Shown in pieces: positions 1-61,871 of a stretch of DNA of 61,871 bases (position 1 is the first letter of the stretch; the number at the start of each line of letters is the position of its first letter). The stretch spans positions 1 to 61,871 of the IMG/VR virus record IMGVR_UViG_3300042465_001631; one strand, 5' to 3'. The notes beneath the pieces were generated by a model. That model was not told where the DNA came from, searched no databases, and worked only from the letters and a program-made list of their open reading frames with translations. The stretch is from a virus (lineage: Duplodnaviria; Caudoviricetes). The translations under genes and the position numbers were made by a program.

Positions 1-127
1 CTAACGGCTGCGGGTAGCATTGCAGAGCGGGATTTGAAACCGCTACACTATCCACCGCTACAAAAAGATATTGAAAGCAGTAAAGTTAAATATGCCGTAA
101 TACCCCGCTTTGCTGCTACCCGTTGTT
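1..127. repeat. Terminal overlap, identical to 61745-61871 (circular assembly signature)
   Basis: First 127 nt equal the last 127 nt; a 127 nt overlap is typical of a k=127 de Bruijn circular contig. Confidence 0.9.
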
Positions 128-129
128 AG
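1..129 (-). repeat. attC-like site A (junction copy)
   Basis: CTAAC-ggctg-CGGGTAGCA-tt-GCAGAGCGGG ... CCCCGCTTTGC-TGCTACCCG-tt-GTTAG imperfect inverted repeat. Confidence 0.8.
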
Positions 130-1629: not shown

Positions 1630-1812
1630 ATGAAGTCATACACTAAAAATATTACGATAAACGTTTCTGAAATTCAGTATGAAACTTTAGAAAAAATAAG
1701 AGCTAATAATATAAAAGTAGGCAATTTCATCCGTGAATCAATTCAAGAGAAAATAAAACGTGAGTACCAACAATTAATATTAAAACCAAAAAAATCGGAT
1801 TGTCCGTTTTAA
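1630..1812 (+). CDS. Small ribbon-helix-helix-like DNA-binding protein
   Basis: 60 aa; alternating beta strand (ITINVS) followed by two predicted helices (YETLEKI, VGNFIRESIQEKI). Confidence 0.55.
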   Translation: MKSYTKNITINVSEIQYETLEKIRANNIKVGNFIRESIQEKIKREYQQLILKPKKSDCPF

Positions 1813-8175: not shown

Positions 8176-9756
8176 ATGAAAAAATATACGCAGGAGTTTA
8201 AGGACTCAGTACTACATTATTTTATGTCTGGAGGCACAATCACTAAGGCTTGTGAACTAACTTGCGAGGCACATAATATTCCTTATAATGATGGAGTTCG
8301 TAGAAAAGTATCTAAATGGTTAGAGGAGAATAATATCTCTAATAATATAGAGCTTGAGAAGACCGACGTATTCCAAGAGGCTAAGAAGAAAGTGTTTGAT
8401 GAGTCTAAGCAAAGGTTCATAATCTCATGGTGTCAGTCAGAGACGGATATTAATGAAAGATTTTTTACAAATATAGAGGCTTATGCTAAGCATATTGACG
8501 CATCAATACATATTATTGCTGGTCGCTATAAGAATCCAATTTCATTGTCTGCCAGTAAGTCGCTTAAGAATAAAGAAGATTTACTGCAAAATTCTTGGCA
8601 CGAAAGAGCTTTACCTTATTTAGATGCCAATAGACACAAAATACACAAGCATTTATGTATATTATCAGACCTTAAAATTCAGCCTACAGCATCTACACCA
8701 TTATCTGGAATTAATGGGCTTACAGGGCTTGAATCGTGTATCGTAGGGCATCCAAGGGTACACCTGAAGTCATTGCCAGTTTTAAATGGTTATCCTCAAA
8801 AAACACTACTAACTACTGGATCAGTTTCTATTGAGAATTATACTGACACAAAGGTTGGAAAGAAGGGTGAATTTCACCATACTTACGGATTTGTAGTAGT
8901 AGAACTTGATGGGGATAACTTCCATATTAGACAGGTTACTGCCGATGAAGATGGTACATTCTATGACCTTGAGTTGTCTGTTATAGATGGAATTGTAGAG
9001 AAGCATAATGAGCCTACGGTAATAGTATTTGGTGATTTACACCTTGGAGAAACTAATGAAGGAGCGCTTAAAGTGTCATTTGAAATGGCAGATAGATTAA
9101 AATGTAGCCAGATTATCTTACACGACGCATTTGATTCTCATAGTATCAGCCATCATGAAAGAACACAACCGTTTCAATTACTTAAGCGTGAGGAGAATGG
9201 AACAGATAATTTATTTGAAGAATTATTTAATTTATCTGATTTTTTTGAATCTCACTCAGAATATAACTTTGGAGTTGTTCGTTCAAATCATTGCGAATTT
9301 CTTGATAGATGGTTAAACGATGTTGACTGGAGAAAGTCTAGGAACAAAATGGCATATCTACAACTAGCTACATCATTAGCATTTGATAAAGATAATAAGG
9401 GGGTTATTCCAATGTACTTAAAGGAAGTTGGGGTTACTAATGCCTTCTGCCTAGGAATTGATGATAGTCTTAGAGTGCTAGACTGGGAGCTCGGGGTACA
9501 TGGTCATATTGGTGCTAATGGAAGCAGAGGAAGCGCTATACAGTTTGCTCAAATGAATACCAAAACTATTACAGGACATACTCACTCTCCCTTAAGATTA
9601 GACGGTCATGTTTGTGTTGGAACCATGACAGATTTAAGAGTAGGTTACAATAAAGGTTTGTCTAGCTGGAATCACGCAAATGCAGTTATTTATCCAAACG
9701 GCAAGGTTCAATTAATAATTATAAATAAAGATACTTATAAATACACTACGCTATGA
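8176..9756 (+). CDS. Calcineurin-like metallophosphoesterase with N-terminal HTH (T5 A1-like architecture)
   Basis: GDLHLG, HDAFD, SNH, HGHIG, GHTHS; duplicated domain layout. Confidence 0.7.
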   Translation: MKKYTQEFKDSVLHYFMSGGTITKACELTCEAHNIPYNDGVRRKVSKWLEENNISNNIELEKTDVFQEAKKKVFDESKQRFIISWCQSETDINERFFTNIEAYAKHIDASIHIIAGRYKNPISLSASKSLKNKEDLLQNSWHERALPYLDANRHKIHKHLCILSDLKIQPTASTPLSGINGLTGLESCIVGHPRVHLKSLPVLNGYPQKTLLTTGSVSIENYTDTKVGKKGEFHHTYGFVVVELDGDNFHIRQVTADEDGTFYDLELSVIDGIVEKHNEPTVIVFGDLHLGETNEGALKVSFEMADRLKCSQIILHDAFDSHSISHHERTQPFQLLKREENGTDNLFEELFNLSDFFESHSEYNFGVVRSNHCEFLDRWLNDVDWRKSRNKMAYLQLATSLAFDKDNKGVIPMYLKEVGVTNAFCLGIDDSLRVLDWELGVHGHIGANGSRGSAIQFAQMNTKTITGHTHSPLRLDGHVCVGTMTDLRVGYNKGLSSWNHANAVIYPNGKVQLIIINKDTYKYTTL

Positions 9757-10289
9757 AAGAAATATGGATTGATGTAATTAATTTTGAAGAAAATTATCAA
9801 GTATCTAATATGGGTAGATTTAGAAGTAAAGATGCCGTTATAAATAGAACTGATGGAAAGTCTTATGTAAAAAAGGGAAGAATACTAAAACCAACATACT
9901 ACTCAAACGGATACAATCAATTAATGTTATATAAAAATAAAAAAAGATATACATTTATTTCTCATAGAGTTGTAGCAAAACACTTTATACCTAATATAGA
10001 TAATAAAAAAGAAGTAAATCATATTAATAATTTAAAAGATGATAATAGGGTAGAAAATTTAGAGTGGTGTACTCCATCTGAAAATATACAAAAAGCACTA
10101 ATATATAATCCTAATTTTGGAAAAAATAGAGGAAGGGAGAATGATAGATTAACGGAGACAGATGTAATTCAAATAAAAAAAATGATTAATGATAATTTAA
10201 AAAATAGCGAAATACTATCTAAATATAAAATATCAGCATCTTCTTTTTTTAATATAAAATCTAATAAAACATGGTCTCATTTAAAATAA
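9753..10289 (+). CDS. NUMOD4-HNH homing endonuclease
   Basis: EIW...YQVSNMGRFRS; HRVVAKHF...VNHINNLKDDNRVENLEWCT. Confidence 0.9.
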   Translation: MKEIWIDVINFEENYQVSNMGRFRSKDAVINRTDGKSYVKKGRILKPTYYSNGYNQLMLYKNKKRYTFISHRVVAKHFIPNIDNKKEVNHINNLKDDNRVENLEWCTPSENIQKALIYNPNFGKNRGRENDRLTETDVIQIKKMINDNLKNSEILSKYKISASSFFNIKSNKTWSHLK

Positions 10290-33434: not shown

Positions 33435-34109
33435 TTATATATGTTTCCACGTTTTTCTATTCAATATACTAGTTACATTAGATTTAGATATAGAATACAT
33501 TTCAGATAATTTTTTATGGCTATATTTATTATTTAAATATAAATTCCTTATCGATAAAACATCTTTATCATTTAATTTTGAAGAAGTATTACACTCTCCT
33601 CTTTTTGCTGATTTTATTTTATTATCCAAATGTTTAGCAGATATTTTTTTGCCATACATATGATTATTTACACCACTATTAGCTAAAGATATTTTATCTT
33701 TATGCTCTTGACTAAGAACCTTTCCTTTATGAAATAGAGATACCTTGTCTCTTTGTTCTTGACTAATGATTTTTCCCTTATTAGGAATACTCATTTTTAA
33801 TTTAGAATCGTCTGAATGAATTAAACCCAAACAGCCGTCTCCACCATTAGTTAAATTACATAAAGTTCCATTACTCAAATCTTTTCTTCCATGCAGACTT
33901 ATAAATTCAATTTCTTTTTGCTTTATAAGTTCATAGTCATCATTTTCAAATAATATTTCTACATCATATTCAGTTTTAGAAACTATATTTAACCAATGAG
34001 AATTTCTATTTTTATTTGAATTTGCTCTCGAATATGTTTCATCAGAACCTATCCCTATATAAAACGGAACATTTTTATCTAACCTAATATGTCTATATAA
34101 ATAAGCCAT
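33435..34109 (-). CDS. Free-standing GIY-YIG homing endonuclease with NUMOD3 repeats and C-terminal HTH
   Basis: YLYRH...FYIGIG, NLTNGGDG, HSDDSKLKMS / LSQEHKDKIS repeats. Confidence 0.8.
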   Translation of the reverse strand: MAYLYRHIRLDKNVPFYIGIGSDETYSRANSNKNRNSHWLNIVSKTEYDVEILFENDDYELIKQKEIEFISLHGRKDLSNGTLCNLTNGGDGCLGLIHSDDSKLKMSIPNKGKIISQEQRDKVSLFHKGKVLSQEHKDKISLANSGVNNHMYGKKISAKHLDNKIKSAKRGECNTSSKLNDKDVLSIRNLYLNNKYSHKKLSEMYSISKSNVTSILNRKTWKHI

Positions 34110-43362: not shown

Positions 43363-43376
43363 CAAAGATAGTAAAT
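43363..43376 (-). promoter_or_regulatory. -7 promoter element ATTTACTATCTTTG
   Basis: Repeated extended motif. Confidence 0.55.
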
Positions 43377-45262
43377 TATAATTTTACTATAGTTAGTATT
43401 CTATTATTTAATATACATCTACCAACATCGGTTCTCCAATTTATACTAATAGGTTGTGTACCATCAACAGTTGTAACACAAGTTAAAGCTACATCTTCTG
43501 TATACGTGTAGTATCTTCTTAATCTACTGGAGTTTGGAACCATTGTATTCCCATTATATATACTAAACATATTAGTACTACCTAATTGTTGAGTATCATC
43601 ATAAGCATTTCCATTAAATATACTTGTTGCAAATATAGTAACATTTCCAAAATTAGTACCCATATCTCCTGTTATTACTGCTAAAGCTGTATTTGCAACA
43701 TTACCTTGATTTGTAAAGCAAAGGAAGTTTTCCAATATACCCATATTGATAACACTTATTGCAGTTGGTTTAGATTGTATTCCTGAGCTAAATGCTAAAG
43801 CACCACTTGTAGAAAACAATCTACCATTAAAAATACAATTTGCACCTAAAGCAGCAGCTGCTCCATAAGCAATAAAGTTTCCACTAACAACATTATCTGC
43901 ACCAATTCCTACAGCTCCAATAGCCATAAAAAATACATTAGCAGCATTAGCACTATTACTCAATTGAATAGTGGTTGCAATTGCTGTGTTTATAGCTCCT
44001 GTTACTCTAAATATAAATAAAGCATTTGGATCACCTCCACCATCAAGCGTTAGTGTTCCAGCAACTGACATAGCTCCTGAAACTGTATAAACTCCAGCTG
44101 TAATAGTTTCTCCTGAACCAAAAGTTAATCCATGAGTTCCTGTAGCTGGTGTATTTAATAGTGCTAGATACATATTCTGTAAATCTAGTGTAGCTATTGT
44201 ACAAACATTTCCAGGTATTACATCATAGTTTCCATTAAAATCTACTTTATAAGTTCCTGCAGGGGGAGTTATAGTCATACCTGTTACTACTACATCTGTT
44301 AAAGAAGTTGTTGATACTTCTTCTGATGCATTTATAGAGTTATAATATCCACCACTAACTGTAACTACATTCCCATTTGCATCAACTCCTATTGCTTGTC
44401 CTGTTGATGTTGGAGAAGAACTTGTTAGTCTTTCAAGTCTTAGACCAGAATCATTAGCAGCTTCACCATATATATGAAGTCTTTTTGTTGGCGCTATTGT
44501 TCCTATACCTATCTTACCTACATTGTCTATATAAAGTCTTGTAGTTGATGACGTCCTTAAATGTAAAAAATTCTGATTACCCCCATAAAACATAGTTGAA
44601 CCTGATAATTCAGCTACATATACATCGCCAATAGTTATTGAATTATTTGCAGGAACAAGATTAATACCTAATAATCCTGTTGCATCAGCAGCTCTTATGC
44701 TTCCTATTACATGCAAAGGTACTTGTGGACTTGTTGTGAGTATTCCTAATCTATTATTTGTGTCATTCCAAAAGAAATTAGGATTATCTTGCGCAATTGT
44801 TGTTCCATTTGAGAATAATACAGATCCAGATGTTAATGGACCTATAACTGCTCCTGGACCTTGTGGACCTATTGGACCTTGTTCTCCAGCTGGACCTACA
44901 GCACCTTGTAATGCAAGTAATGCCCAATGTGTTGGATCTAAGTAAGGCTCTATAGTTCCATCAGTAGCTAATATACAGAAATAAGAACCATTATTATTAC
45001 CAACAGCATCATCCTCTATATAAGAAGTTCCTGATTCCCATTCTCCTCTCCATTCTAATCCTGCTGGACCAACTGCACCTGGTGCTCCTGTTAATCCTAT
45101 CTCTCCCTGTGGACCAATAGGTCCCTGTTCTCCAGGACCTACAAATTCTGCAATATCCTCTATGGTAAAAGGCTCTGTTGTTTTGTTCAACACAGCAGAC
45201 TTTCTTTCTACTAAGTCAACCGATGTCGCTATTCCTATAAATCTTGTACCATTTGGTATCAT
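43376..45262 (-). CDS. Collagen-repeat fibre protein with inserted DUF3494 (ice-binding-type) domain
   Basis: G-X-Y repeats, NRLGI / GKIGIGT..P fibre repeats, ITAGVY...LTLDGGGDPNALFIFRV...NAANVFF. Confidence 0.75.
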   Translation of the reverse strand: MIPNGTRFIGIATSVDLVERKSAVLNKTTEPFTIEDIAEFVGPGEQGPIGPQGEIGLTGAPGAVGPAGLEWRGEWESGTSYIEDDAVGNNNGSYFCILATDGTIEPYLDPTHWALLALQGAVGPAGEQGPIGPQGPGAVIGPLTSGSVLFSNGTTIAQDNPNFFWNDTNNRLGILTTSPQVPLHVIGSIRAADATGLLGINLVPANNSITIGDVYVAELSGSTMFYGGNQNFLHLRTSSTTRLYIDNVGKIGIGTIAPTKRLHIYGEAANDSGLRLERLTSSSPTSTGQAIGVDANGNVVTVSGGYYNSINASEEVSTTSLTDVVVTGMTITPPAGTYKVDFNGNYDVIPGNVCTIATLDLQNMYLALLNTPATGTHGLTFGSGETITAGVYTVSGAMSVAGTLTLDGGGDPNALFIFRVTGAINTAIATTIQLSNSANAANVFFMAIGAVGIGADNVVSGNFIAYGAAAALGANCIFNGRLFSTSGALAFSSGIQSKPTAISVINMGILENFLCFTNQGNVANTALAVITGDMGTNFGNVTIFATSIFNGNAYDDTQQLGSTNMFSIYNGNTMVPNSSRLRRYYTYTEDVALTCVTTVDGTQPISINWRTDVGRCILNNRILTIVKL

Positions 45263-45873: not shown

Positions 45874-46102
45874 TATAGGGTATATTCTCTATTAACATAG
45901 TATATCCAGCTCCTTTATCGTAGTAGATATAATTTCCCTCGTTAACGCAGTCTACATTCGTGCCTGGCTTTACTACTAGCCCCTTCTTGTATCTAAACTT
46001 CTCAGCATCACTACCCGTAAGTAGTAACCCTGATTCTGTTTTTATCTGTTCATCAATCGTTGTGATTAAAATGTATTTATTTATTGGAATTGCTGTCATC
46101 AT
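45836..46102 (-). CDS. groES: Co-chaperonin GroES
   Basis: KTESGLLL mobile loop, G.VV..G, ERDVV; adjacent to GroEL. Confidence 0.8.
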   Translation of the reverse strand: MMTAIPINKYILITTIDEQIKTESGLLLTGSDAEKFRYKKGLVVKPGTNVDCVNEGNYIYYDKGAGYTMLIENIPYTIIQERDVVVVL

Positions 46103-48681
46103 TACGCTCGTGTCATTGTTATAATTGCATTTGTACTTAATATCGTAGTGGCTACACTCACCGCATTCTTCAGTGCGTTCTTCGTAACCTTCAGTGGATC
46201 AATTACACCCATCTTGAACATATCACCATATACCTCATTCTTAACATCATACCCTTGATCCTTACCAAATGGAACCTCCATCACCTCATAACCATCCAAC
46301 CCAGCATTGGTCATGATCTGTAGCAATGGTGCTTGTATAGCCCTTGCTATAATATGCATCGCTGCGTACTGGTTAGCACTAATGTCATCAATCGTGTCAT
46401 CTGCGTTAGCGATAATCGTGTAAGACTCACTGAATAAGGCTAAACCTCCTCCTGGCAAGATACCTTCCTCTAATGCAGAACGTACAGCACATACTGCGTC
46501 ATCAACTCTGTCTTTACGTTCTTTCTGCTCAAGGTCTGAGTTACCTCCTACGTAAATTACACCAATACCTCCTGTCAAGCTAGCAATACGCTGTTTGATA
46601 AAGTCCTTGTCTGACTTTCTATTTGATAGGTTATAGCTATCCCAAAGCTGAGAAACTCTATCGTTGATCTCGTCGCTTGCAACCTCTGACCTTACAATCA
46701 CAGTGTTGTCTCTTCCTACAATGATCTTGTCTGCTCTACCAAGGTCGTCAACGCTAATAAGGCTCAAGTCATCTCCAGTGCTCTCTGAGAAATACTTAGC
46801 TCCTACAGCCAGTGCAATGTCACCCATCAACTCGTTACGTTTATAACCAAACTGAGGAGGTATAATGTTGCATAACCTCAATCCCTTCTGTACTACGTTG
46901 GCAGCCAATGTGTTAATAACATTCTGACTACACGTACCGATGATCAATAGCTTCTTCTGTTGCTGTATAACTGGCATAAGTACCTTCTCAATTGACAAGA
47001 TATTATTTATCTCTTGATCCGTAACAAGTACCAGTACATCATCCATAATGCACTCGTCTTTCTTATGGTTGTTGATGAACATGTTCGATGTATATCCTCT
47101 ATCAATCTTAATACCATTGGTAACCTGCGTATACGTCTCTGATGTCTGAGAGTCCTCGATAGTGACAATACCATCCTTACCAACCTTCTCGTATGTGCTC
47201 GCTATAATACCGCCAAGCTCCGTGTCATTGTTGGCTGAGATTGATGCCACGTTCTTCAGCGTCTTTCCGCTAACCTTCTTGGACCTCTTCTCCAGACTAG
47301 TTACCAACCTATCAGTTACGTCGTTCATGTGTCTAATAACCTCTGTGATGTTGTGCTTGTCGTTCAAAATCTCTTGACCTTGCTTAACAATAGCCTCTGT
47401 AAGCACAATCGCTGTTGTGGTATTGTGAGTAGGAATATAATTATCTGTTATGTATAAGTGGTTTTCATTACTTACCTTTATACACATCATTTCTGTTCTA
47501 ATTCCAGTATTTACTACGTTTACTATTTTAGCTCCGTACTTATATCCAGATAATTGAGCTATTCTATGAATACTTTTATTTGAGTATGAATTAACATCAT
47601 TCTCTCTTGAATGTAATCTCCTGTTAAAAGAATGACCAAGACTAACGATTAATTCTTGAAAGTCGTCAGCTAATTTATCAGAAACCGTACTAAATTCAAA
47701 TAACCCTCTTTTATTAATATATCCGTCAGTAGCTAATAGTCCTTCTAATAATCTTTTTCTATCCTCTATTGGGGAATATAAATAAGTTTCTGGTATTAAT
47801 TTCGTATCGCTTTTTGTTCCAAGTAAACCTATTGAATTAACTAAATCAAACATAGTAAGTCCAGATTCAGTAACTCCTTTAAATTTTACTCTAAAATAAT
47901 TCTTATCATCACACCATCTAACTGATGTAGTTATTCCGTCTGGAATAATTATACTGCTAATTATATGTTCTTTATTTAATCCAAGAGATAACTCAATAGC
48001 TCCTGTTCCGCTTAAACTACCATCACCAAGAAGTACACCTACTAAAAATGGATCTAACGGCATAGGATTTACTTGAGTAAACTCAACTGGAGACGTTTCT
48101 ATAAAATATTTGTATGTATTTGAATTATCTTTATTTAAAGATGAAAAATCTTTCATTATATCTAAAGTAGTAATAGTTTTAGATACTCCGTAATTAGTTG
48201 TAACGGTCCATAAATGATTTTCAGAACACTCAACTAACCTTCCATCTCCAAATGAAACTTCGTATATGTCTAAATTTCCTTTAGGGAATACCCCTAAAAC
48301 AGTTTGACTAGTTTCGTGAGTTCCGCAAATAGTATCTCCAACACTTAAATCACTTATCTTAGTCCATCCAAATGGGGTTAAGACATTGGCATCTAATGGT
48401 TGTGGTCCATCTCCTGCACTAGTCGCTGTGCGATCTGCCGCTTCCTTCATCATCTTAACTGCTAGGTTCTCTACTGGATCGATGAGGTAAATAGACTTGG
48501 CTACTGTTACCCCATCTTTCGTGACTGTAATTCCATGCGTGTGCTCTGGTGATTCAATCAAGACTGTCTTACCTCGTGGTCCGAGTGTGCTCTTAACTGC
48601 CTTGGCAATAGTGGTGATGCCATTAATTAACTTATCCCTTCCTTCTGTATCGAAGACTAAATCCTTTGGACTGTAACTCAT
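46102..48681 (-). CDS. groEL: Chaperonin GroEL containing an intein
   Basis: STLGPRG, VTKDGVTVAK, AGDG/TTT, KDRVDDA, PGGG, GVIDP; start set at MSYSPK, downstream of TATATTTG. Confidence 0.95.
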   Translation of the reverse strand: MSYSPKDLVFDTEGRDKLINGITTIAKAVKSTLGPRGKTVLIESPEHTHGITVTKDGVTVAKSIYLIDPVENLAVKMMKEAADRTATSAGDGPQPLDANVLTPFGWTKISDLSVGDTICGTHETSQTVLGVFPKGNLDIYEVSFGDGRLVECSENHLWTVTTNYGVSKTITTLDIMKDFSSLNKDNSNTYKYFIETSPVEFTQVNPMPLDPFLVGVLLGDGSLSGTGAIELSLGLNKEHIISSIIIPDGITTSVRWCDDKNYFRVKFKGVTESGLTMFDLVNSIGLLGTKSDTKLIPETYLYSPIEDRKRLLEGLLATDGYINKRGLFEFSTVSDKLADDFQELIVSLGHSFNRRLHSRENDVNSYSNKSIHRIAQLSGYKYGAKIVNVVNTGIRTEMMCIKVSNENHLYITDNYIPTHNTTTAIVLTEAIVKQGQEILNDKHNITEVIRHMNDVTDRLVTSLEKRSKKVSGKTLKNVASISANNDTELGGIIASTYEKVGKDGIVTIEDSQTSETYTQVTNGIKIDRGYTSNMFINNHKKDECIMDDVLVLVTDQEINNILSIEKVLMPVIQQQKKLLIIGTCSQNVINTLAANVVQKGLRLCNIIPPQFGYKRNELMGDIALAVGAKYFSESTGDDLSLISVDDLGRADKIIVGRDNTVIVRSEVASDEINDRVSQLWDSYNLSNRKSDKDFIKQRIASLTGGIGVIYVGGNSDLEQKERKDRVDDAVCAVRSALEEGILPGGGLALFSESYTIIANADDTIDDISANQYAAMHIIARAIQAPLLQIMTNAGLDGYEVMEVPFGKDQGYDVKNEVYGDMFKMGVIDPLKVTKNALKNAVSVATTILSTNAIITMTRA
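47422..48405 (-). mobile_element. 328 aa LAGLIDADG intein, class-3-type (Pro1, W-C-T triplet)
   Basis: PQPLDANVLTP start; CSENHLW; LVGVLLGDG and LLEGLLATDG; MMCIKV...IPTHN/T end. Confidence 0.9.
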
Positions 48682-48708
48682 TTTATTATATTTAATTGTT
48701 TTATGGGA

Positions 48709-57380: not shown

Positions 57381-57403
57381 TTATTATATTATATTTGCAT
57401 TTC

Positions 57404-57473
57404 AGCTACGTGGTATAGTGGTATTATATTGAGTTTTTCCTCATTGAGGCAGGTTCGATTCCTGTCGTAGTGC
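57404..57473 (+). tRNA. tRNA-like cloverleaf with a 6-nt anticodon loop (pseudo-tRNA, identity unassignable)
   Basis: GCTACG/CGTAGT acceptor, TAGTGGTA D-loop, TGAG/CTCA stem, GCAGG-TTCGATT-CCTGT T-arm; TATATTTG promoter at 57390. Confidence 0.55.
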
Positions 57474-57531
57474 TAAACAAACAGGGTAGCCGAAAACTGA
57501 TTAGAGTAGGCGAATTTAAAATAAAATAAAA

Positions 57532-57855
57532 ATGGAATTAACAGGGAAAATTGAAGTAATTAGTTTGAATGTAGGAAATGAAAAATTCAAAAAAAGCGAA
57601 TTAGTAGTAACCACAGATGAAAAATATACACAAAGTATCTTAATTGAGTTTGGTGGTGATAAATCAGACTTAATAGATGCTTATAAAGTAGGAGACGAAG
57701 TAGAGGTATCGATTAATATTGGAGGTAGAAAATGGACTAATCCAGAAGGTATTGACAAGTACTTCAATTCGATAAAGGGATGGAAAATCAAAAAACTATC
57801 TGAAGAGGCACAACCAACGCAAGCACAGGAACTAGCAGATATTCTTCCATTCTAA
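57532..57855 (+). CDS. DUF3127 single-stranded DNA-binding protein
   Basis: MELTGKI...VGDEVEVSINIGGRKW...YFNSIKGWKI; DILPF tail. Confidence 0.85.
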   Translation: MELTGKIEVISLNVGNEKFKKSELVVTTDEKYTQSILIEFGGDKSDLIDAYKVGDEVEVSINIGGRKWTNPEGIDKYFNSIKGWKIKKLSEEAQPTQAQELADILPF

Positions 57856-57862
57856 ACTAACT

Positions 57863-57889
57863 AAGCCTCCTGTAAAACGGAGGCTTTTT
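57863..57889 (+). terminator. Intrinsic terminator
   Basis: AAGCCTCC...GGAGGCTTTTT. Confidence 0.75.
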
Positions 57890-57902
57890 AACAAAACAAA
57901 TT

Positions 57903-58109
57903 ATGAAAAACACAATAAATTATTTAGGACACGAGTTTGAATATAGATTCAGTTATTCACCAGGAAGACCAGCAACTCACGAAGATCCAGAAGAATATGA
58001 AGAGTTTGATATTTACGACATTACATTAAATGGTATAGACGCAACTGACTTATTAGACAGACAAATTGATGATTTTGAAGGAGAAGTAATTAGATACCTT
58101 AAAGACTAA
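57903..58109 (+). CDS. Small acidic hypothetical protein
   Basis: ORF track. Confidence 0.6.
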   Translation: MKNTINYLGHEFEYRFSYSPGRPATHEDPEEYEEFDIYDITLNGIDATDLLDRQIDDFEGEVIRYLKD

Positions 58110-58207
58110 TGGAAAATATAGCAGCATTTTTAGTAGGATGTTTCTTCGTCCTATTTATATGGGTAAATACTTGGATCTATGAACAGTGGAATAATAAATT
58201 GAAGTAA
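58109..58207 (+). CDS. 32 aa membrane peptide whose TAA stop forms the first TAAC core of the array
   Basis: TAATG coupling; MENIAAFLVGCFFVLFIWV... Confidence 0.45.
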   Translation: MENIAAFLVGCFFVLFIWVNTWIYEQWNNKLK

Positions 58208-58233
58208 CGGATGGTGTTACCGCTAGTTGTGGG
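58204..58233 (-). repeat. Half attC-like site at the array's left end
   Basis: GTAACGGATGGTGTTACCGCTAGTTGTGGG resembles the left arms of sites G and D; no matching right arm found. Confidence 0.45.
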
Positions 58234-58276
58234 TTTTTACCGAAAAATTAATTATAAATACTAAATACAAAAAAAT

Positions 58277-58810
58277 ATGGGATGTGATATACACAGTTTT
58301 GCCGAAATAAAAAGAAACGGTAAATGGGAAAAAGTAGGAGAACATTTTTCGTTAGGAGAATGGGAAAAAGAATATTATAAAAAAGAAAAAAACGACAGTC
58401 CTTTTGATTGGAGAAGTTATTCAATGTTTGCATTTTTAGCTGATGTTAGAAATTATGACCATTGCGAACCAATAAGCGAACCAAAAGGAATACCCGAAGA
58501 TGTTTGTGACGAAATCAAAAGCGAATATGATGATTGGGAAAGTGACGCACATTCATCGTCTTACTTGACACTAAAAGAACTTTTAGATTTTGATTACGAT
58601 AAAGTGTTTTGGAACAGAAGAATTAATAGAACTACGTATAATGAAAATGGTGGTAGTTATACTAACGGAGCGTCATTAGCAGAAGAAGGAGAAGGAACTA
58701 ATGTAACGTATAGAGAAAATCTAGGAGAATTTTTCTTTATTCATTTGAAAGAATTGGAAGAATTAGGAAATCCTGATGAAGTCAGAATAGTTTTTTGGTT
58801 CGACAATTAA
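58277..58810 (+). CDS. Hypothetical phage protein (MGCDIH family) in the first, degenerate cassette
   Basis: MGCDIH...RSYSMFAFLADVRN...RIVFWFDN. Confidence 0.8.
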   Translation: MGCDIHSFAEIKRNGKWEKVGEHFSLGEWEKEYYKKEKNDSPFDWRSYSMFAFLADVRNYDHCEPISEPKGIPEDVCDEIKSEYDDWESDAHSSSYLTLKELLDFDYDKVFWNRRINRTTYNENGGSYTNGASLAEEGEGTNVTYRENLGEFFFIHLKELEELGNPDEVRIVFWFDN

Positions 58811-58849
58811 CTAAATTTCATTAAGAACCGCTAATGTAGTAATTAGCAT

Positions 58850-58978
58850 CTAACGGCTGCGGGTAGCATTGCAGAGCGGGATTTGAAACCGCTACACTAT
58901 CCACCGCTACAAAAAGATATTGAAAGCAGTAAAGTTAAATATGCCGTAATACCCCGCTTTGCTGCTACCCGTTGTTAG
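58850..58978 (-). repeat. attC-like site A
   Basis: Same as 1-129. Confidence 0.8.
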
Positions 58979-59003
58979 GGGCTGGTATTAATAAATAAAC
59001 AAA

Positions 59004-59255
59004 ATGCAAGTTGAAAAATTACCGCAAGACGATTGGAAATTAGACAAAATTGAGTTAGAATTTAAATCTTATGGTGAAGACCAAGGAAAATACGTTGGTA
59101 AAATTCGTTTTCAAAATGGCGAATACGAAAGTTTTTCTTTTAAAATAAGACCTGATATGGCACAGCCTTATATTGAATTAATAGGTGCTGATATTGTTAA
59201 ATGTGCTGAGTCGCTTGGAGCAAGATTGGCTGAGTCACTTGGATTAAAGAAGTAG
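59004..59255 (+). CDS. Cassette-borne hypothetical protein (83 aa)
   Basis: Identical to 155-406. Confidence 0.8.
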   Translation: MQVEKLPQDDWKLDKIELEFKSYGEDQGKYVGKIRFQNGEYESFSFKIRPDMAQPYIELIGADIVKCAESLGARLAESLGLKK

Positions 59256-59283
59256 TAAAATCGGGGCGAGGTTATACTTGCCC

Positions 59284-59414
59284 CTAACGGTATCTCGCTT
59301 TGTGTCAGTGGCGGATTAAAAAAGACTGACTTTCCGATTAATAACTAAACATACAAAAATGCAAGAAACATTAAATTTAGACCAAAACCCGCCATTGCAC
59401 AAAACTAGTGTTAG
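59284..59414 (-). repeat. attC-like site B
   Basis: CTAAC...TTTGTG-t-CAGTGGCGG ... CCGCCATTG-CACAAA...GTTAG. Confidence 0.75.
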
Positions 59415-59907
59415 CAAATCGGTTCCGAAAATTAAAACTTATGTGCTAACAGTTTCAGAATTTTTCCCTAAAACGCACAATAAATCAGGATTACCAACAG
59501 GATTTATTGATAAAATCGGAAGCAAAATTAAAAAGCACACCATTCGTGGAAATTACGAATTATGGAAAAAAAGAATTGAAGAAATACAAAAAGGAAATGC
59601 TGTTTTATCAATTCGTTATTGGCTTGGAAAACCTTATAATTCCAAGCAAAAAGAAGTTCATGTTTTAGATAAATATTCTGGAATTGGAGTTCAAAAATTA
59701 ACTTTTGAAGAGATGATTATGACTTGCGAAGATGTTTTAGAAACAAAATCAAAAGTAGGACTGCATATTTGGAAACCAAATTTTTCAAATATTAAAACTC
59801 TAGCGAAAAATGACGGACTTGAATTTGAAGATTTTAAAGAATGGTTTAAAGGTTATGATTTAAACGAACCAATGGCAATAGTTCATTTTACCGATGAACG
59901 TTATTAA
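59359..59907 (+). CDS. Cassette-borne ASCH/PUA-like protein; ORF begins inside site B
   Basis: KKHTIR...W and LAKNDGL...F..WF motifs. Confidence 0.6.
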   Translation: MQETLNLDQNPPLHKTSVSKSVPKIKTYVLTVSEFFPKTHNKSGLPTGFIDKIGSKIKKHTIRGNYELWKKRIEEIQKGNAVLSIRYWLGKPYNSKQKEVHVLDKYSGIGVQKLTFEEMIMTCEDVLETKSKVGLHIWKPNFSNIKTLAKNDGLEFEDFKEWFKGYDLNEPMAIVHFTDERY

Positions 59908-59914
59908 CTGTTTG

Positions 59915-59989
59915 CTAACGTTCCCACGATAGGGGCTGTTTGCCTATGCGGTTGCGTAAATTCGGCAAATAGACATTATCGTGTGTTAG
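59915..59989 (-). repeat. attC-like site C (short, 75 bp)
   Basis: CTAAC...ACGATA..CTGTTTGCC ... GGCAAATAG..TATCGT-gt-GTTAG. Confidence 0.75.
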
Positions 59990-60040
59990 CACCAGTAGCG
60001 GATTAATTAAACAAAAATATTAACTTAAAACAAAATAAAT

Positions 60041-60187
60041 ATGCCACCATTAAAAGAATACAGATTTGAGGATATGATGAACTCAAATGTACAAGTAGTA
60101 ATTAAATCATACAGCTTTACACAGGCTTATGAAATTTTGGTAATGATAACTAAACACCCTGCGGATTTTAAATGTACGAGTTTGTAG
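60041..60187 (+). CDS. Cassette-borne 48 aa protein (not in ORF track)
   Basis: MPPLKEYRFED...KCTSL fills the gap between sites C and D; A-rich leader. Confidence 0.65.
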   Translation: MPPLKEYRFEDMMNSNVQVVIKSYSFTQAYEILVMITKHPADFKCTSL

Positions 60188-60196
60188 CTATTGGTG

Positions 60197-60328
60197 CTAA
60201 CGTACGTTGAGCATTGTTGTAGTTGTGGATTAGGGCTGCCAAATTATCGATTAAACACTAATACAACCAAGTACAAAAACCAATTATTAATTAAGCCAAA
60301 TGCCACAATTGCCACAACGCATTGTTAT
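60197..60328 (-). repeat. attC-like site D
   Basis: CTAAC...GCATTGTTGTAGTTGTGG ... CCACAATTGCCACAACGC-att-GTTAT. Confidence 0.75.
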
Positions 60329-60354
60329 ATGATGGCTTTTTATTCACACAAATT

Positions 60355-60621
60355 ATGAAAGATTTTAAACAATTCAGAAGAAGTCAAATTGCAGAAATTA
60401 GAGAAGTAACAGAAGTAGATATTAATGTATTTAAGAATCACGGATTTATATATATATCAGAATATCTATTTGGTTTTAATATATCAATTTCCGATGCAGA
60501 TAAAAATAACGGAAGCCCTAAAATTGGCGATATGATTGCAAGAAATCCAAAAGACTACTCTGACCAATGGTTAATAGCTGAACAATATTTCAAAGATAAT
60601 TTTGAACAGTTAGTTGAGTAA
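60355..60621 (+). CDS. Cassette-borne hypothetical phage protein
   Basis: SISDADKNNGSPKIGDMIARNP...DQWL; start at ATG 60355. Confidence 0.75.
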   Translation: MKDFKQFRRSQIAEIREVTEVDINVFKNHGFIYISEYLFGFNISISDADKNNGSPKIGDMIARNPKDYSDQWLIAEQYFKDNFEQLVE

Positions 60622-60629
60622 GCTATCAT

Positions 60630-60715
60630 ATAACGGAAAAGCTTGTAGCTGTATGCCAAGAAAAACGTGAATCTAAAGAAAATAGTCGTAGCATATAGCT
60701 ACAAGCGTGTGTTAG
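60630..60715 (-). repeat. attC-like site E
   Basis: ATAAC-ggaaaa-GCTTGTAGCTGTATGC ... GCATATAGCTACAAGC-gtgt-GTTAG. Confidence 0.8.
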
Positions 60716-60749
60716 GGTGCGTAGTGGGTAATTAAAAATAAAAGTTATT

Positions 60750-61421
60750 ATGAAAAAGAATGTTTTAGAATTATTTGCAGGATCCCGCTCAATAGGAAAT
60801 AAAGCCGAGCAATTAGGAATGAATGTTTTTAGCGTAGATTGGACACCATACGAAAAAATAGATTTATCAATTGATATTGAATTATTGACTAAAGACCAAG
60901 TCCCATTTATTCCTGATGTTGTATGGGCAAGTCCTGATTGCACAACTTATACGATTGCCGCAATATCACATCATAGAAATGGAACAGAACCTAAAAGCGA
61001 TTATGCTTTAAAATGTGATAATGTAAATAAGCACTGGCTAGGCTTAATAAATGAATGGTTAATCATTAATCCTAAAATGGTATTCTTTATTGAAAATCCT
61101 CGTGGAATGATGCGAAAAATGCCGTTTATGAAAGGATTACAAAGAACTACTGTATGGTATTGTACTTACGGAGATTCGAGAGCAAAACCAACTGACATCT
61201 GGAGCAATAATATACAATCAATTTTTAATCAAAACGGATGGAATCCAAGAGCTGAATGTTTTAACGGTAATAAAAAATGCCAACACGAAAGCGCACCGAG
61301 AGGATCAAAAACAGGGACACAAGGAAAAAAAGGAAGTTACAACCGTTCTAAAATACCTGAATTATTATGCGAGGATGTGCTAAATTCAATTATGAATGAT
61401 AATCGTAGCTATGCACCCTAA
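60750..61421 (+). CDS. Cassette-borne short C5-cytosine DNA methyltransferase-like protein
   Basis: LELFAGS (motif I), ASPDC (IV), IENP (VI), KPT; stop codon is the TAA of the next core. Confidence 0.8.
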   Translation: MKKNVLELFAGSRSIGNKAEQLGMNVFSVDWTPYEKIDLSIDIELLTKDQVPFIPDVVWASPDCTTYTIAAISHHRNGTEPKSDYALKCDNVNKHWLGLINEWLIINPKMVFFIENPRGMMRKMPFMKGLQRTTVWYCTYGDSRAKPTDIWSNNIQSIFNQNGWNPRAECFNGNKKCQHESAPRGSKTGTQGKKGSYNRSKIPELLCEDVLNSIMNDNRSYAP

Positions 61422-61545
61422 CGGCGGATGCTACACGATGGCTGGGAAAAGCACACACCCAAACTTCGGATAATGACTGATTAAAAAAGTACAAACTGAA
61501 CTTTAAATTTAAAAATTAACCCAACTATTGTATAGCGTATGTTAG
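61418..61545 (-). repeat. attC-like site F
   Basis: CTAAC...ATGCTACACGATGGCTGGG ... CCCAACTATTGTATAGCGT-at-GTTAG. Confidence 0.75.
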
Positions 61546-61570
61546 CAGTAGTTATAATACAGAATTTGTT

Positions 61571-61738
61571 ATGAAAGCACTATGCTTAATTATTTGGATG
61601 ATTATTTCATTATTATTTGTTTGCAGTATCATTGGATTGGTAATGTTTATACCTAAAGACAATTGGCAAAATCAAGAAAACACACCATCAACTTGGTATT
61701 CTATTGGTAAAAAATTGTTGAACAGTGTGGTTGAATAA
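61571..61738 (+). CDS. Cassette-borne 55 aa membrane protein (not in ORF track)
   Basis: MKALCLIIWMIISLLFVCSIIGLVMF...; fills the gap between sites F and A. Confidence 0.65.
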   Translation: MKALCLIIWMIISLLFVCSIIGLVMFIPKDNWQNQENTPSTWYSIGKKLLNSVVE

Positions 61739-61744
61739 TTACTG

Positions 61745-61871
61745 CTAACGGCTGCGGGTAGCATTGCAGAGCGGGATTTGAAACCGCTACACTATCCACC
61801 GCTACAAAAAGATATTGAAAGCAGTAAAGTTAAATATGCCGTAATACCCCGCTTTGCTGCTACCCGTTGTT
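61745..61871 (-). repeat. attC-like site A, equal to the terminal overlap with 1-127
   Basis: Identical to window start. Confidence 0.85.

Follow-up and report, generated by a model that had tools for sequence, protein, structure and literature searches.

A probable integron-like array of hairpin-plus-gene cassettes in a complete Flavobacteria-type phage genome

We analyzed a 61,871-nucleotide stretch of viral DNA (Duplodnaviria; Caudoviricetes; IMG/VR record IMGVR_UViG_3300042465_001631, positions 1 to 61,871), hereafter called the window, and found across its joined ends a run of small genes separated by imperfect palindromes of the form TAAC...GTTA. The run begins at 58206, crosses the window end and stops at 1597, and it contains eight palindromes, 73-130 nt long, and nine gene units. 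Our reading, to which we give a probability of about 0.75, is that this is an integron-like cassette array inside a complete phage genome and that the palindromes are hairpin-forming recombination sites. Outside 58206-1597 there were essentially no TAAC...GTTA sites in the window. The first 127 bases of the window are identical to its last 127 (61745-61871 repeated at 1-127), an assembly overlap, and the IMG/VR record is described as a virus with direct terminal repeats and a completeness of 100%. Together these features indicate one circular genome, of 61,744 bp and 33.7% G+C. Circularity also means that the array starting near 58.2 kb runs on into the units at 125 and 555.

A first-pass annotation of the letters had proposed that each gene is bracketed by its own inverted repeat extending the GTTA/TAAC cores. 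The seven flank pairs it listed are all present, letter for letter and in place, but the generalization to each gene does not reach the leftmost unit (58217-58854), whose flanks are non-complementary. Its inventory was also incomplete, since the palindromes at 58851-58977 and 59285-59413 and a second copy of an 83-amino-acid (aa) cassette at 58974-59288 had been overlooked. In the listed pairs, the start of the unit and the reverse complement of its end agree over 9-10 bases, clash at positions 10-11 and agree again for 2-4 more. At position 11 the start carries G in six of the seven (C in the unit at 59410) and the reverse-complemented end carries A in all seven, which means T on the plus strand. 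This recurring mismatch, which had been noticed in the listed pairs, proved general when we aligned the flanks of 236 distinct units from the window and related loci: the identity between a unit's own flanks was 0.77-0.82 at positions 5-9, 0.58 at position 10, only 0.05 at position 11, 0.72-0.58 at positions 12-15 and 0.19-0.32 beyond 15. The combination of G at the start and T at the end (plus strand) at position 11 was found in 154 of the 236 units. A perfect 6-nt match at positions 5-10 occurred in 111 of 236 own pairs versus 248 of 55,460 non-own pairs, and flank pairs taken from other units agreed at 0.27-0.38 (set of 78 units). The two sides of a palindrome agreed at 0.24-0.36 (173 palindromes), which is background level, so that the flanks do match across a gene and not across a palindrome. 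These data show that the flank complementarity is beyond chance, spans about 15 bp and has a built-in T·G at position 11. The outer stem is therefore longer than the canonical 7 bp, as had been suggested.

The eight sites of the window have TAAC...GTTA cores, asymmetric unpaired spacers and long imperfect stems, and these traits generalize to 311 distinct arrayed palindromes. Bulges were also seen in the folds of the window sites, at no shared position. Palindromes were called with a home-made, strand-neutral detector that scores arm pairing and gives no credit to G·T; it replaced an energy-based detector (DNA parameters, -12 kcal/mol) that had missed four of the eight true sites. We consider it probable that the two flanks of a unit together form the 15-bp outer stem of a hairpin resembling attC, a stem that has been split by a crossover in the TAAC(G) core. 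In silico circularization of the units, a check named by the first-pass annotation, gave a longer stem with 13-15 outer pairs in eight of eight cases. The mean DNA folding energy was -26.2 kcal/mol for the circularized form, compared with -19.5 kcal/mol for the array form and -18.6 ± 5.0 kcal/mol for sites given foreign flanks (n=54).

The two strands of these sites are not equivalent. The minus strand of the circularized sites folded worse (mean -23.6 kcal/mol), and the stem mismatches of the 311 palindromes on the plus strand comprised 370 G·T versus 107 A·C. In 255 of the 311, a G came directly after TAAC and a T directly before GTTA. This plus strand, the one that folds, is also the coding one: 165 of 180 units have their open reading frames (ORFs) on it. 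The G·T bias means that on the coding strand a wobble stands at either end of the 10-bp perfect part of the outer stem, and that on the opposite strand an A·C clash takes each of these two places. The strand bias appears to be carried by G·T versus A·C pairs.

Many sites also reach into the gene that follows them. The loop of palindrome B (59285-59413) contains an A-rich leader and an ATG, at 59359, in frame with the gene, and the GTTA at 59410 falls within the ORF that starts there (59359-59907). Loops with this arrangement of leader and start codon also occur in L004 and L001 and at three sites of L002, of which one stands before a methyltransferase gene (L-numbers denote contig loci used for comparison). 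The first in-frame ATG lay inside the palindrome in 61 of 168 units, and the TAA of the core served as a stop codon in 35 of 168. These observations, together with the A-rich loops, the sense orientation of the ORFs, the excess on the sense strand of G·T, which would be G·U in RNA, and the lack of a recombinase in this genome, would fit a role at the RNA level, in which the palindromes are 5' leader or processing hairpins of a polycistronic early transcript, the flanks close a panhandle in the mRNA, and the shuffling of genes occurs by microhomology or homologous recombination at conserved motifs. No plus-strand site resembling an intrinsic terminator (a GC-rich hairpin with a T run after it) fell at any palindrome in 57400-61871, where three such sites were found, all on the minus strand, against 2.3 expected, and this counts against the RNA-level account. 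A sigma-70 promoter scan found 17 matches versus 19.5 expected, with a consensus that does not apply to Bacteroidota promoters. A role of the hairpins and the leader in RNA may nevertheless exist alongside DNA recombination, and it is compatible with all of the structural data.

The rearrangements among arrays bear on the same question and indicate what is moved. Within the window, 58847-59289 is a duplicate of 61742-440, the two being identical at 441 of 443 positions; the duplication spans CTAAC, the palindrome (A or G), the gene and the sequence up to ...CCCCTAACG, i.e. it runs from TAAC to TAAC. Contig depth was approximately doubled over 58850-59289 in three of four sequencing runs. The mobile unit is a palindrome plus the gene downstream of it, the reverse of the canonical integron cassette. 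Among 32 homologous gene pairs across loci, 11 shared the upstream palindrome only, none the downstream palindrome only, three shared neither and 18 were syntenic, although the 11 upstream-only pairs stem from just three gene clusters. One more independent case comes from L023 and L024, where the same palindrome and downstream gene follow different upstream neighbors. Arrays open with a palindrome and close with a bare TAAC.

Six phage isolates of Flavobacterium psychrophilum (FPSV-D15, FPSV-D35, 2A, 6H, 23T and FPSV-F7) carry arrays that are permutations of shared units, each consisting of a palindrome (p) and its downstream gene (G). The array of FPSV-D15 reads p2G3-p3G4-p5G6-p6G7-p7G8-p1G9, and that of FPSV-D35 contains the same units plus p1G10 at the distal end; phage 2A lacks p5G6-p6G7, and phage 6H lacks p2G3. 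Across the six, a single gene end (...ATTACCGC|TAAC) is followed by p4, p5 or p7, and five different cassette ends join the same backbone at TAAC|GTATAG. The palindrome of family p1 precedes five different genes in F. psychrophilum phages. The only sequence common to the junction partners in the six isolates is TAACG, and rearrangements that are all joined at this 5-nt sequence, without longer homology, bear the mark of site-specific exchange. These independent rearrangements argue against the RNA-level account, as do the one-sided linkage of 11 versus 0 and the constant spacing, in 33 loci, between the terminal TAAC and a tyrosine recombinase (see below); we therefore regard that account, taken as a replacement for recombination, as improbable.

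If the sites are recombinant hybrids, as the first-pass annotation had it, homologous cassettes in other genomes should keep their flank pair whatever their neighbors. This is true of close copies. The cassette at 59410-59919 recurs at 94% identity in L004/L165 (L004 1340-1854), that at 60711-61422 recurs at 93% identity in L012 (186-909), and in both instances the two neighboring palindromes are different. The homology of such close copies (93-94%) is confined to the unit, beginning at (T)GTTA and stopping at TAACG(TT), and the flank pairs are the same. It is not true of more distant relatives: homologues of the 223-aa gene with 71-78% nucleotide identity carry different pairs, with five different 6-nt stretches, each compensated at the other end. 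Conversely, the flank pair of 60324-60634 also brackets two unrelated ORFs, in L166 and L232, and that of the methyltransferase cassette (555-1597) recurs on two shorter units in L092. The flank pair thus belongs to the site and not to the gene. Most of the 74 homologues of the 223-aa protein are encoded at loci without palindromes, in L002 the 83-aa gene has a homologue that belongs to an ordinary operon, outside any cassette, and no sites were detected in L003. Taken together, the retention of pairs among new neighbors, the exchange of whole TAACG-joined units between isolates and the longer stems of the circularized forms bear out the hybrid nature of the sites.

Inverted repeats that bracket genes, and palindrome families that occur in unrelated phages, could also come from transposon-like units with 15-bp terminal inverted repeats, or from palindromes resembling miniature inverted-repeat transposable elements (MITE) or repetitive extragenic palindromes (REP) and spread by an HUH transposase of the IS200/IS605 or REP-associated (RAYT) type. 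The repeats, however, vary from unit to unit beyond GTTA/TAAC, so that no single transposase would recognize them, and the units stand strictly head to tail at one locus and are not dispersed. The profile of the Y1 HUH transposase (PF01797) matched none of five array-bearing records, while it matched six of 14 positive controls. We consider a transposon origin very unlikely, the least likely of the explanations discussed here.

A candidate for the enzyme is encoded next to related arrays. L004 is part of a complete phage contig of 48 kb, on which the gene for an Xer-like tyrosine recombinase of 267 aa starts 52 nt past the TAAC of the last cassette. In 80 viral-contig loci with a homologue of this recombinase (51-100% identity), palindromes occurred at 0.72/kb upstream of the gene (201 sites) versus 0.039/kb downstream (16 sites), and at least one upstream palindrome was present in 49 of the 53 recombinase loci that have at least 1.5 kb upstream. 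The last cassette closed with an exact 10-nt complement in 38 of 57 recombinase loci, and 33 of those 38 had 42-53 nt between this cassette and the ATG of the recombinase, a spacer that mostly starts with TA(C/T)TATAT. The spacer is partly conserved; in the window the bare TAAC precedes a 60-aa gene instead. In L165-L173, L191, L248 and L250, the enzymes are 91-94% identical and the DNA is homologous only from the region of the terminal TAAC to the stop codon, with unrelated sequence on both sides. By such comparisons, the recombinase gene and its 52-nt leader behave as a portable block. Among bacterial genome contigs, most homologues of at least 54% identity keep the TAAC junction and upstream palindromes, and these include an isolate of Flavobacterium urumqiense and metagenome-assembled genomes (MAGs) of Flavobacterium and other Bacteroidota. 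Bacterial homologues of 46% identity or less had any upstream site in only four of 68 cases.

The array-linked enzyme aligned end to end with archaeal XerA. Against IntI4 (PDB 2A3V) the alignment fell into two pieces, with 34 residues where IntI4 has 82 (48 fewer), and the enzyme scored below the NCBIfam cut-offs for XerA and IntI (for TIGR02249, 143 vs 265 bits). Its association with the arrays makes this Xer-like protein the putative catalyst. In GenBank phages, its relatives were only 34-38% identical and were found in the Polaribacter and Cellulophaga phages of Bartlau et al.; the passages cited from that paper do not mention integrons, cassettes or palindromes (PMC8776804). The homology between the Polaribacter phages Freya_1 and Freya_10 (L245-L247) sets in just ahead of the gene for a 35% identical Xer-like integrase, and in the records of Freya_1 to Freya_10 the Xer-like gene lies 0.1-4.2 kb from the start of the record. 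The core at the Freya junction differs (...GCTAAC|ACCCC vs ...GTTTAC|AACACCCC), and the Freya_1/Freya_10 sites lack the TAAC...GTTA signature, the home-made detector having found none. The Freya arrangement is probably a sister cassette system. More distant recombinase homologues (39-42%) occur in multiple copies within single MAGs of Acidobacteriaceae/Terriglobales (L277-L327), where a conserved, GC-rich leader with GCACTAA(C/G)CCGCTAGCGCGG stands before them; these belong to a different element, similar to an insertion sequence (IS).

The 60-aa gene (1630-1812, plus strand; phrog_25647) adjoins the bare TAAC at the array end in the window, in L092 and in the phages of the 6H group. Its homologues were found in five array loci and one truncated locus, and in none of 140 loci without arrays; in GenBank they occurred only in F. 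psychrophilum phages and Polaribacter phage P12002S. The weak family matches of the protein, one of them of the RelB type, make it look like a ribbon-helix-helix protein.

We propose the following model. Each site has an outer stem of about 15 bp, in which 3-4 bp and the T·G of position 11, a wobble pair, are followed by 6 bp characteristic of the type of site and then by the conserved TAAC/GTTA. Further inward come a G·T pair, a spacer that stays unpaired, and a long inner stem with imperfect pairing that is closed by a loop. The strands would be exchanged in the TAAC(G) of the hairpin's 5' side, the coding strand being the one that folds. An exchange in this 5' TAAC(G) would place the two halves of the outer stem at opposite ends of the gene after insertion, and each site in an array would then be a hybrid of the 5' half of one cassette and the 3' half of the next. 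The mobile unit consists of the inner palindrome, the GTTA flank, the gene and the flank ending in TAA. The substrate would be single-stranded DNA (plus strand), excision would yield a circle, and the array of the window, which lacks a recombinase, would depend on an enzyme supplied in trans, whether the host, a prophage or a co-infecting phage provides it. That Flavobacteriia phages and prophage-like regions of their hosts carry an integron analogue of their own, in which a small Xer-like enzyme that lacks the IntI domain captures and reshuffles hairpin-plus-gene units at TAAC, the strand is set by the wobbled stem, the loop doubles as a leader and enzyme-less arrays are served in trans, is in our view an even bet.

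Several points weigh against the recombination reading. The window genome did not give a match to the tyrosine recombinase profile PF00589 (0 of 1) or to the Y1 HUH profile PF01797, and a circular or excised form was not seen in the four sequencing runs, which are present as contigs, where rare forms cannot show; the three joints that were reported have sides of 20-27 nt, and none runs core to core. The Xer-like enzyme could simply be a lysogeny integrase: a homologue with 94% identity to it sits in a 170-kb contig of Flavobacterium urumqiense, and Bartlau et al. interpreted the 34-38% identical enzymes of flavophages as such (PMC8776804). The segment specific to IntI, absent from the Xer-like enzyme, is said to serve single-strand recombination (PMC4792948). 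The G·T asymmetry of the coding strand is also expected from selection on RNA structure. At older divergence, both neighboring palindromes differ from those of the homologous cassette, and a single fixed crossover point cannot explain everything; since the inner palindrome is also replaced at greater divergence, the linkage decays with time. Finally, the home-made detector missed palindrome B and called some false sites in coding DNA.

All features of the array lie on the plus strand. At its left end, 58206-58220 reads TAAC, 7 nt, GTTA, a degenerate or minimal site whose TAA is the stop codon of the backbone ORF 58110-58208. Backbone homology to L089 and L092 stops at 58203-58210, i.e. at this TAAC, and in L092 a full 128-nt palindrome begins at the same backbone point. 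The leftmost unit (58217-58854) contains a 177-aa gene (58277-58810; phrog_10141), is missing from the backbone relatives and looks like a decayed or fused cassette. Palindrome A (58851-58977, 127 nt, -20.8 kcal/mol as plus-strand DNA) is identical to palindrome G and precedes the first copy of the 83-aa cassette (58974-59288; gene 59004-59255). Palindrome B (129 nt) leads into the phrog_8581 cassette (59410-59919), in whose ORF the family profile begins at residue 26. Palindrome C (59916-59988, 73 nt), with -14.4 kcal/mol on the plus and -9.5 kcal/mol on the minus strand, is followed by a cassette with a 48-aa ORF (59985-60201; ORF 60041-60187), and palindrome D (60198-60327, 130 nt), 82% identical to the palindrome preceding the last cassette of L166, by one with an 88-aa ORF (60324-60634; ORF 60355-60621). 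After palindrome E (60631-60714, 84 nt) comes the cassette of the 223-aa gene (60711-61422; gene 60750-61421; phrog_757, DNA methyltransferase-like). Palindrome F (61419-61544, 126 nt) is 79% identical to a palindrome of the Flavobacterium phages FPSV-D15, D35 and D17, where the flanking genes are different, and it stands before a cassette with a 55-aa hydrophobic ORF (61541-61749; ORF 61571-61738). Palindrome G (61746-61871, continuing as window 1-128) precedes the second copy of the 83-aa cassette (125-439; gene 155-406). Palindrome H (436-558, 123 nt; plus strand -20.8, minus strand -17.6 kcal/mol) opens the last cassette (555-1597), which contains a gene for a 329-aa N6/N4 DNA methyltransferase (595-1584) and ends in the bare TAAC at 1594-1597 with no palindrome after it.

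The array is carried by the complete genome of a freshwater phage of the Flavobacteria type. Among its genes are those for a portal, a large terminase, a crAss-type muzzle domain, a lysozyme, Cpn60/Cpn10 and a primase-helicase, along with many small early genes; the closest GenBank DNA matches are F. psychrophilum phages, and the sequencing runs in which the sequence occurs are labelled lake water. Backbone relatives with a primase 89-95% identical include L087, L088 and L089, which are without an array, and L092, which carries a different one with 11 palindromes. Several other features of the genome were noted. The 868-aa Cpn60 (GroEL-like) gene at 46102-48708 (minus strand) has its chaperonin match split in two, and the stretch between the halves matches LAGLIDADG_3 and PHROGs of the terminase/primase type; the layout suggests that this phage chaperonin is interrupted by an intein carrying a homing endonuclease. 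Free-standing genes of the homing-endonuclease type are found at 9753-10286 (plus strand; NUMOD4 and HNH_3) and at 33435-34106 (minus strand; NUMOD3), the latter between the portal and large terminase genes. A tail-fibre-like protein with an Ice_binding-like domain (E = 4e-22) is encoded at 43376-45259 (minus strand). A tRNA gene at 57404-57473 (plus strand; Rfam 37.5 bits), for which ARAGORN names no anticodon and reports "(tt) at position 33", was the only match in an Rfam scan of the window at gathering thresholds.

Integrons are the textbook gene-capture engine of bacteria, and the same logic would be at work here in phages, wired differently. If true, Xer-derived cassette capture would have originated or branched a second time, with independent wiring and in viruses, and this would bear on the origin of integron sites and cassettes and on how IntI arose from Xer-type enzymes. 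The same frame around unrelated ORFs, and cassette genes that have phage homologues outside cassettes, speak to how cassettes are born. With the six F. psychrophilum isolates, cassette turnover, strand choice and cassette birth become testable in a culturable phage-host system. The reading would also change how the "integrase" genes of flavophages, so far taken as signs of lysogeny, are understood, and it would account for a hypervariable early region with anti-restriction methyltransferases.

Sites of the attC kind in phages have been described before. In 17 phages, attC clusters without an integrase are reported by Qi et al. (2023), one of these phages being Polaribacter phage P12002L with methyltransferase cassettes, and IntI1 used five of six tested phage attC sites (PMC9892861). 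P12002L_attC1 is of the TAACG...TGTTA type by the primer table, and it is the single site excepted from the verified IntI1 junctions (PMC9892861). In P12002L (L334) we observed 49-58 nt TAACG...TGTTA hairpins between methyltransferase genes at 29.2-32.1 kb and 37.3-38.9 kb (minus strand), on the coding strand. Given these clusters and hairpins, attC-like sites in Flavobacteriia phages are already in print. The reversed polarity, the 15-bp wobble-bracketed stem, the leader function, the turnover of units among isolates and the Xer-like platform were not found in the literature searched, whose coverage leaves subscription journals outside and in which PMC9892861 and PMC8776804 alone bore directly on the subject. 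The premise of the first-pass annotation, that an integron site is fully complementary only in the excised circular cassette, is sound. In integrons the 3' core is crossed over at G|TT, and of the two strands the bottom one makes the better substrate (PMC9892861).

The array resembles an integron in several respects. Its units are head to tail and mostly contain a single gene; its imperfect palindromes of 73-130 nt are conserved in structure and not in sequence; the cores are conserved AAC/GTT, a crossover inside the core leaves hybrid sites in the array, and one strand folds better; the cargo includes methyltransferases, and in relatives the array ends in a simple site beside a tyrosine recombinase. 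There are also differences. The phage site lies upstream of its gene on the coding strand, whereas a canonical cassette is an ORF followed by attC. On the sense strand, crossover occurs at the 5' TAAC instead of the G|TT in the 3' core. At about 15 bp, the outer stem has twice the length of the canonical 7 bp, and it comes with two fixed wobbles, the T·G of position 11 and the G·T beside the core. A leader and start codon often lie in the loop, and the linked recombinase lacks the segment specific to IntI, while the window genome has no recombinase. When read on the minus strand, the array takes on the canonical geometry, with a simple site proximal to the recombinase, cassettes ending in a full site and exchange at G|TTA; the better-folding plus strand then becomes the "bottom" strand, and the cassette ORFs are antisense to that orientation. 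In canonical attC sites the bottom strand is cleaved in the 5' arm, at the position that corresponds to TAA|C. We conclude that the array is integron-like and not a canonical integron, and that by structure the array of the window would qualify as a cluster of attC sites lacking an integron integrase (CALIN).

The array might instead have been captured from an ordinary integron of bacteria, as a canonical attC cluster without integrase that is served by the IntI of the host and has no phage-specific character. The integrase-less phage clusters, the use of phage sites by IntI1 (PMC9892861) and the two methyltransferases among the window cassettes are in its favor. It has to contend with the opposite polarity of the cassettes, the 15-bp stem with its fixed wobble pairs, the Xer-like character of the linked recombinase, the phage homologues of cassette genes outside cassettes and the exception of P12002L attC1, a site of the TAACG...TGTTA type, from the verified IntI1 junctions (PMC9892861). 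We consider this origin quite unlikely, and prefer the reading of a cassette array with hairpin sites of its own kind.

Three other systems share parts of this design with the array. The phage sites may be likened to the Vibrio cholerae repeats (VCRs) in that family p1 stands before five genes and that one flank pair surrounds three unrelated ORFs; in the chromosomal superintegron, a near-identical family of VCR sites serves many different genes. Unlike the superintegron, the arrays described here reside in phages, are short at 5-12 units and bring several families of sites together in a single array. XerCD acts on the folded single-stranded attP of the CTX phage, whose hairpin mimics a duplex core site, without the insertion found in IntI. 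This is a precedent for the catalysis proposed here, although CTX undergoes a single integration at dif and forms no cassette array. Lastly, Arbiol, Comeau and Krisch (2010) reportedly described promoter-stem-loop (PeSL) cassettes in T4-type phages that are shuffled as units in a hyperplastic early region. In both cases small phage genes are preceded by a stem-loop module and moved as units; there the exchange goes through homology of the repeated promoter-stem-loops, whereas here we find 5-nt junctions, divergent hairpins and a linked tyrosine recombinase.

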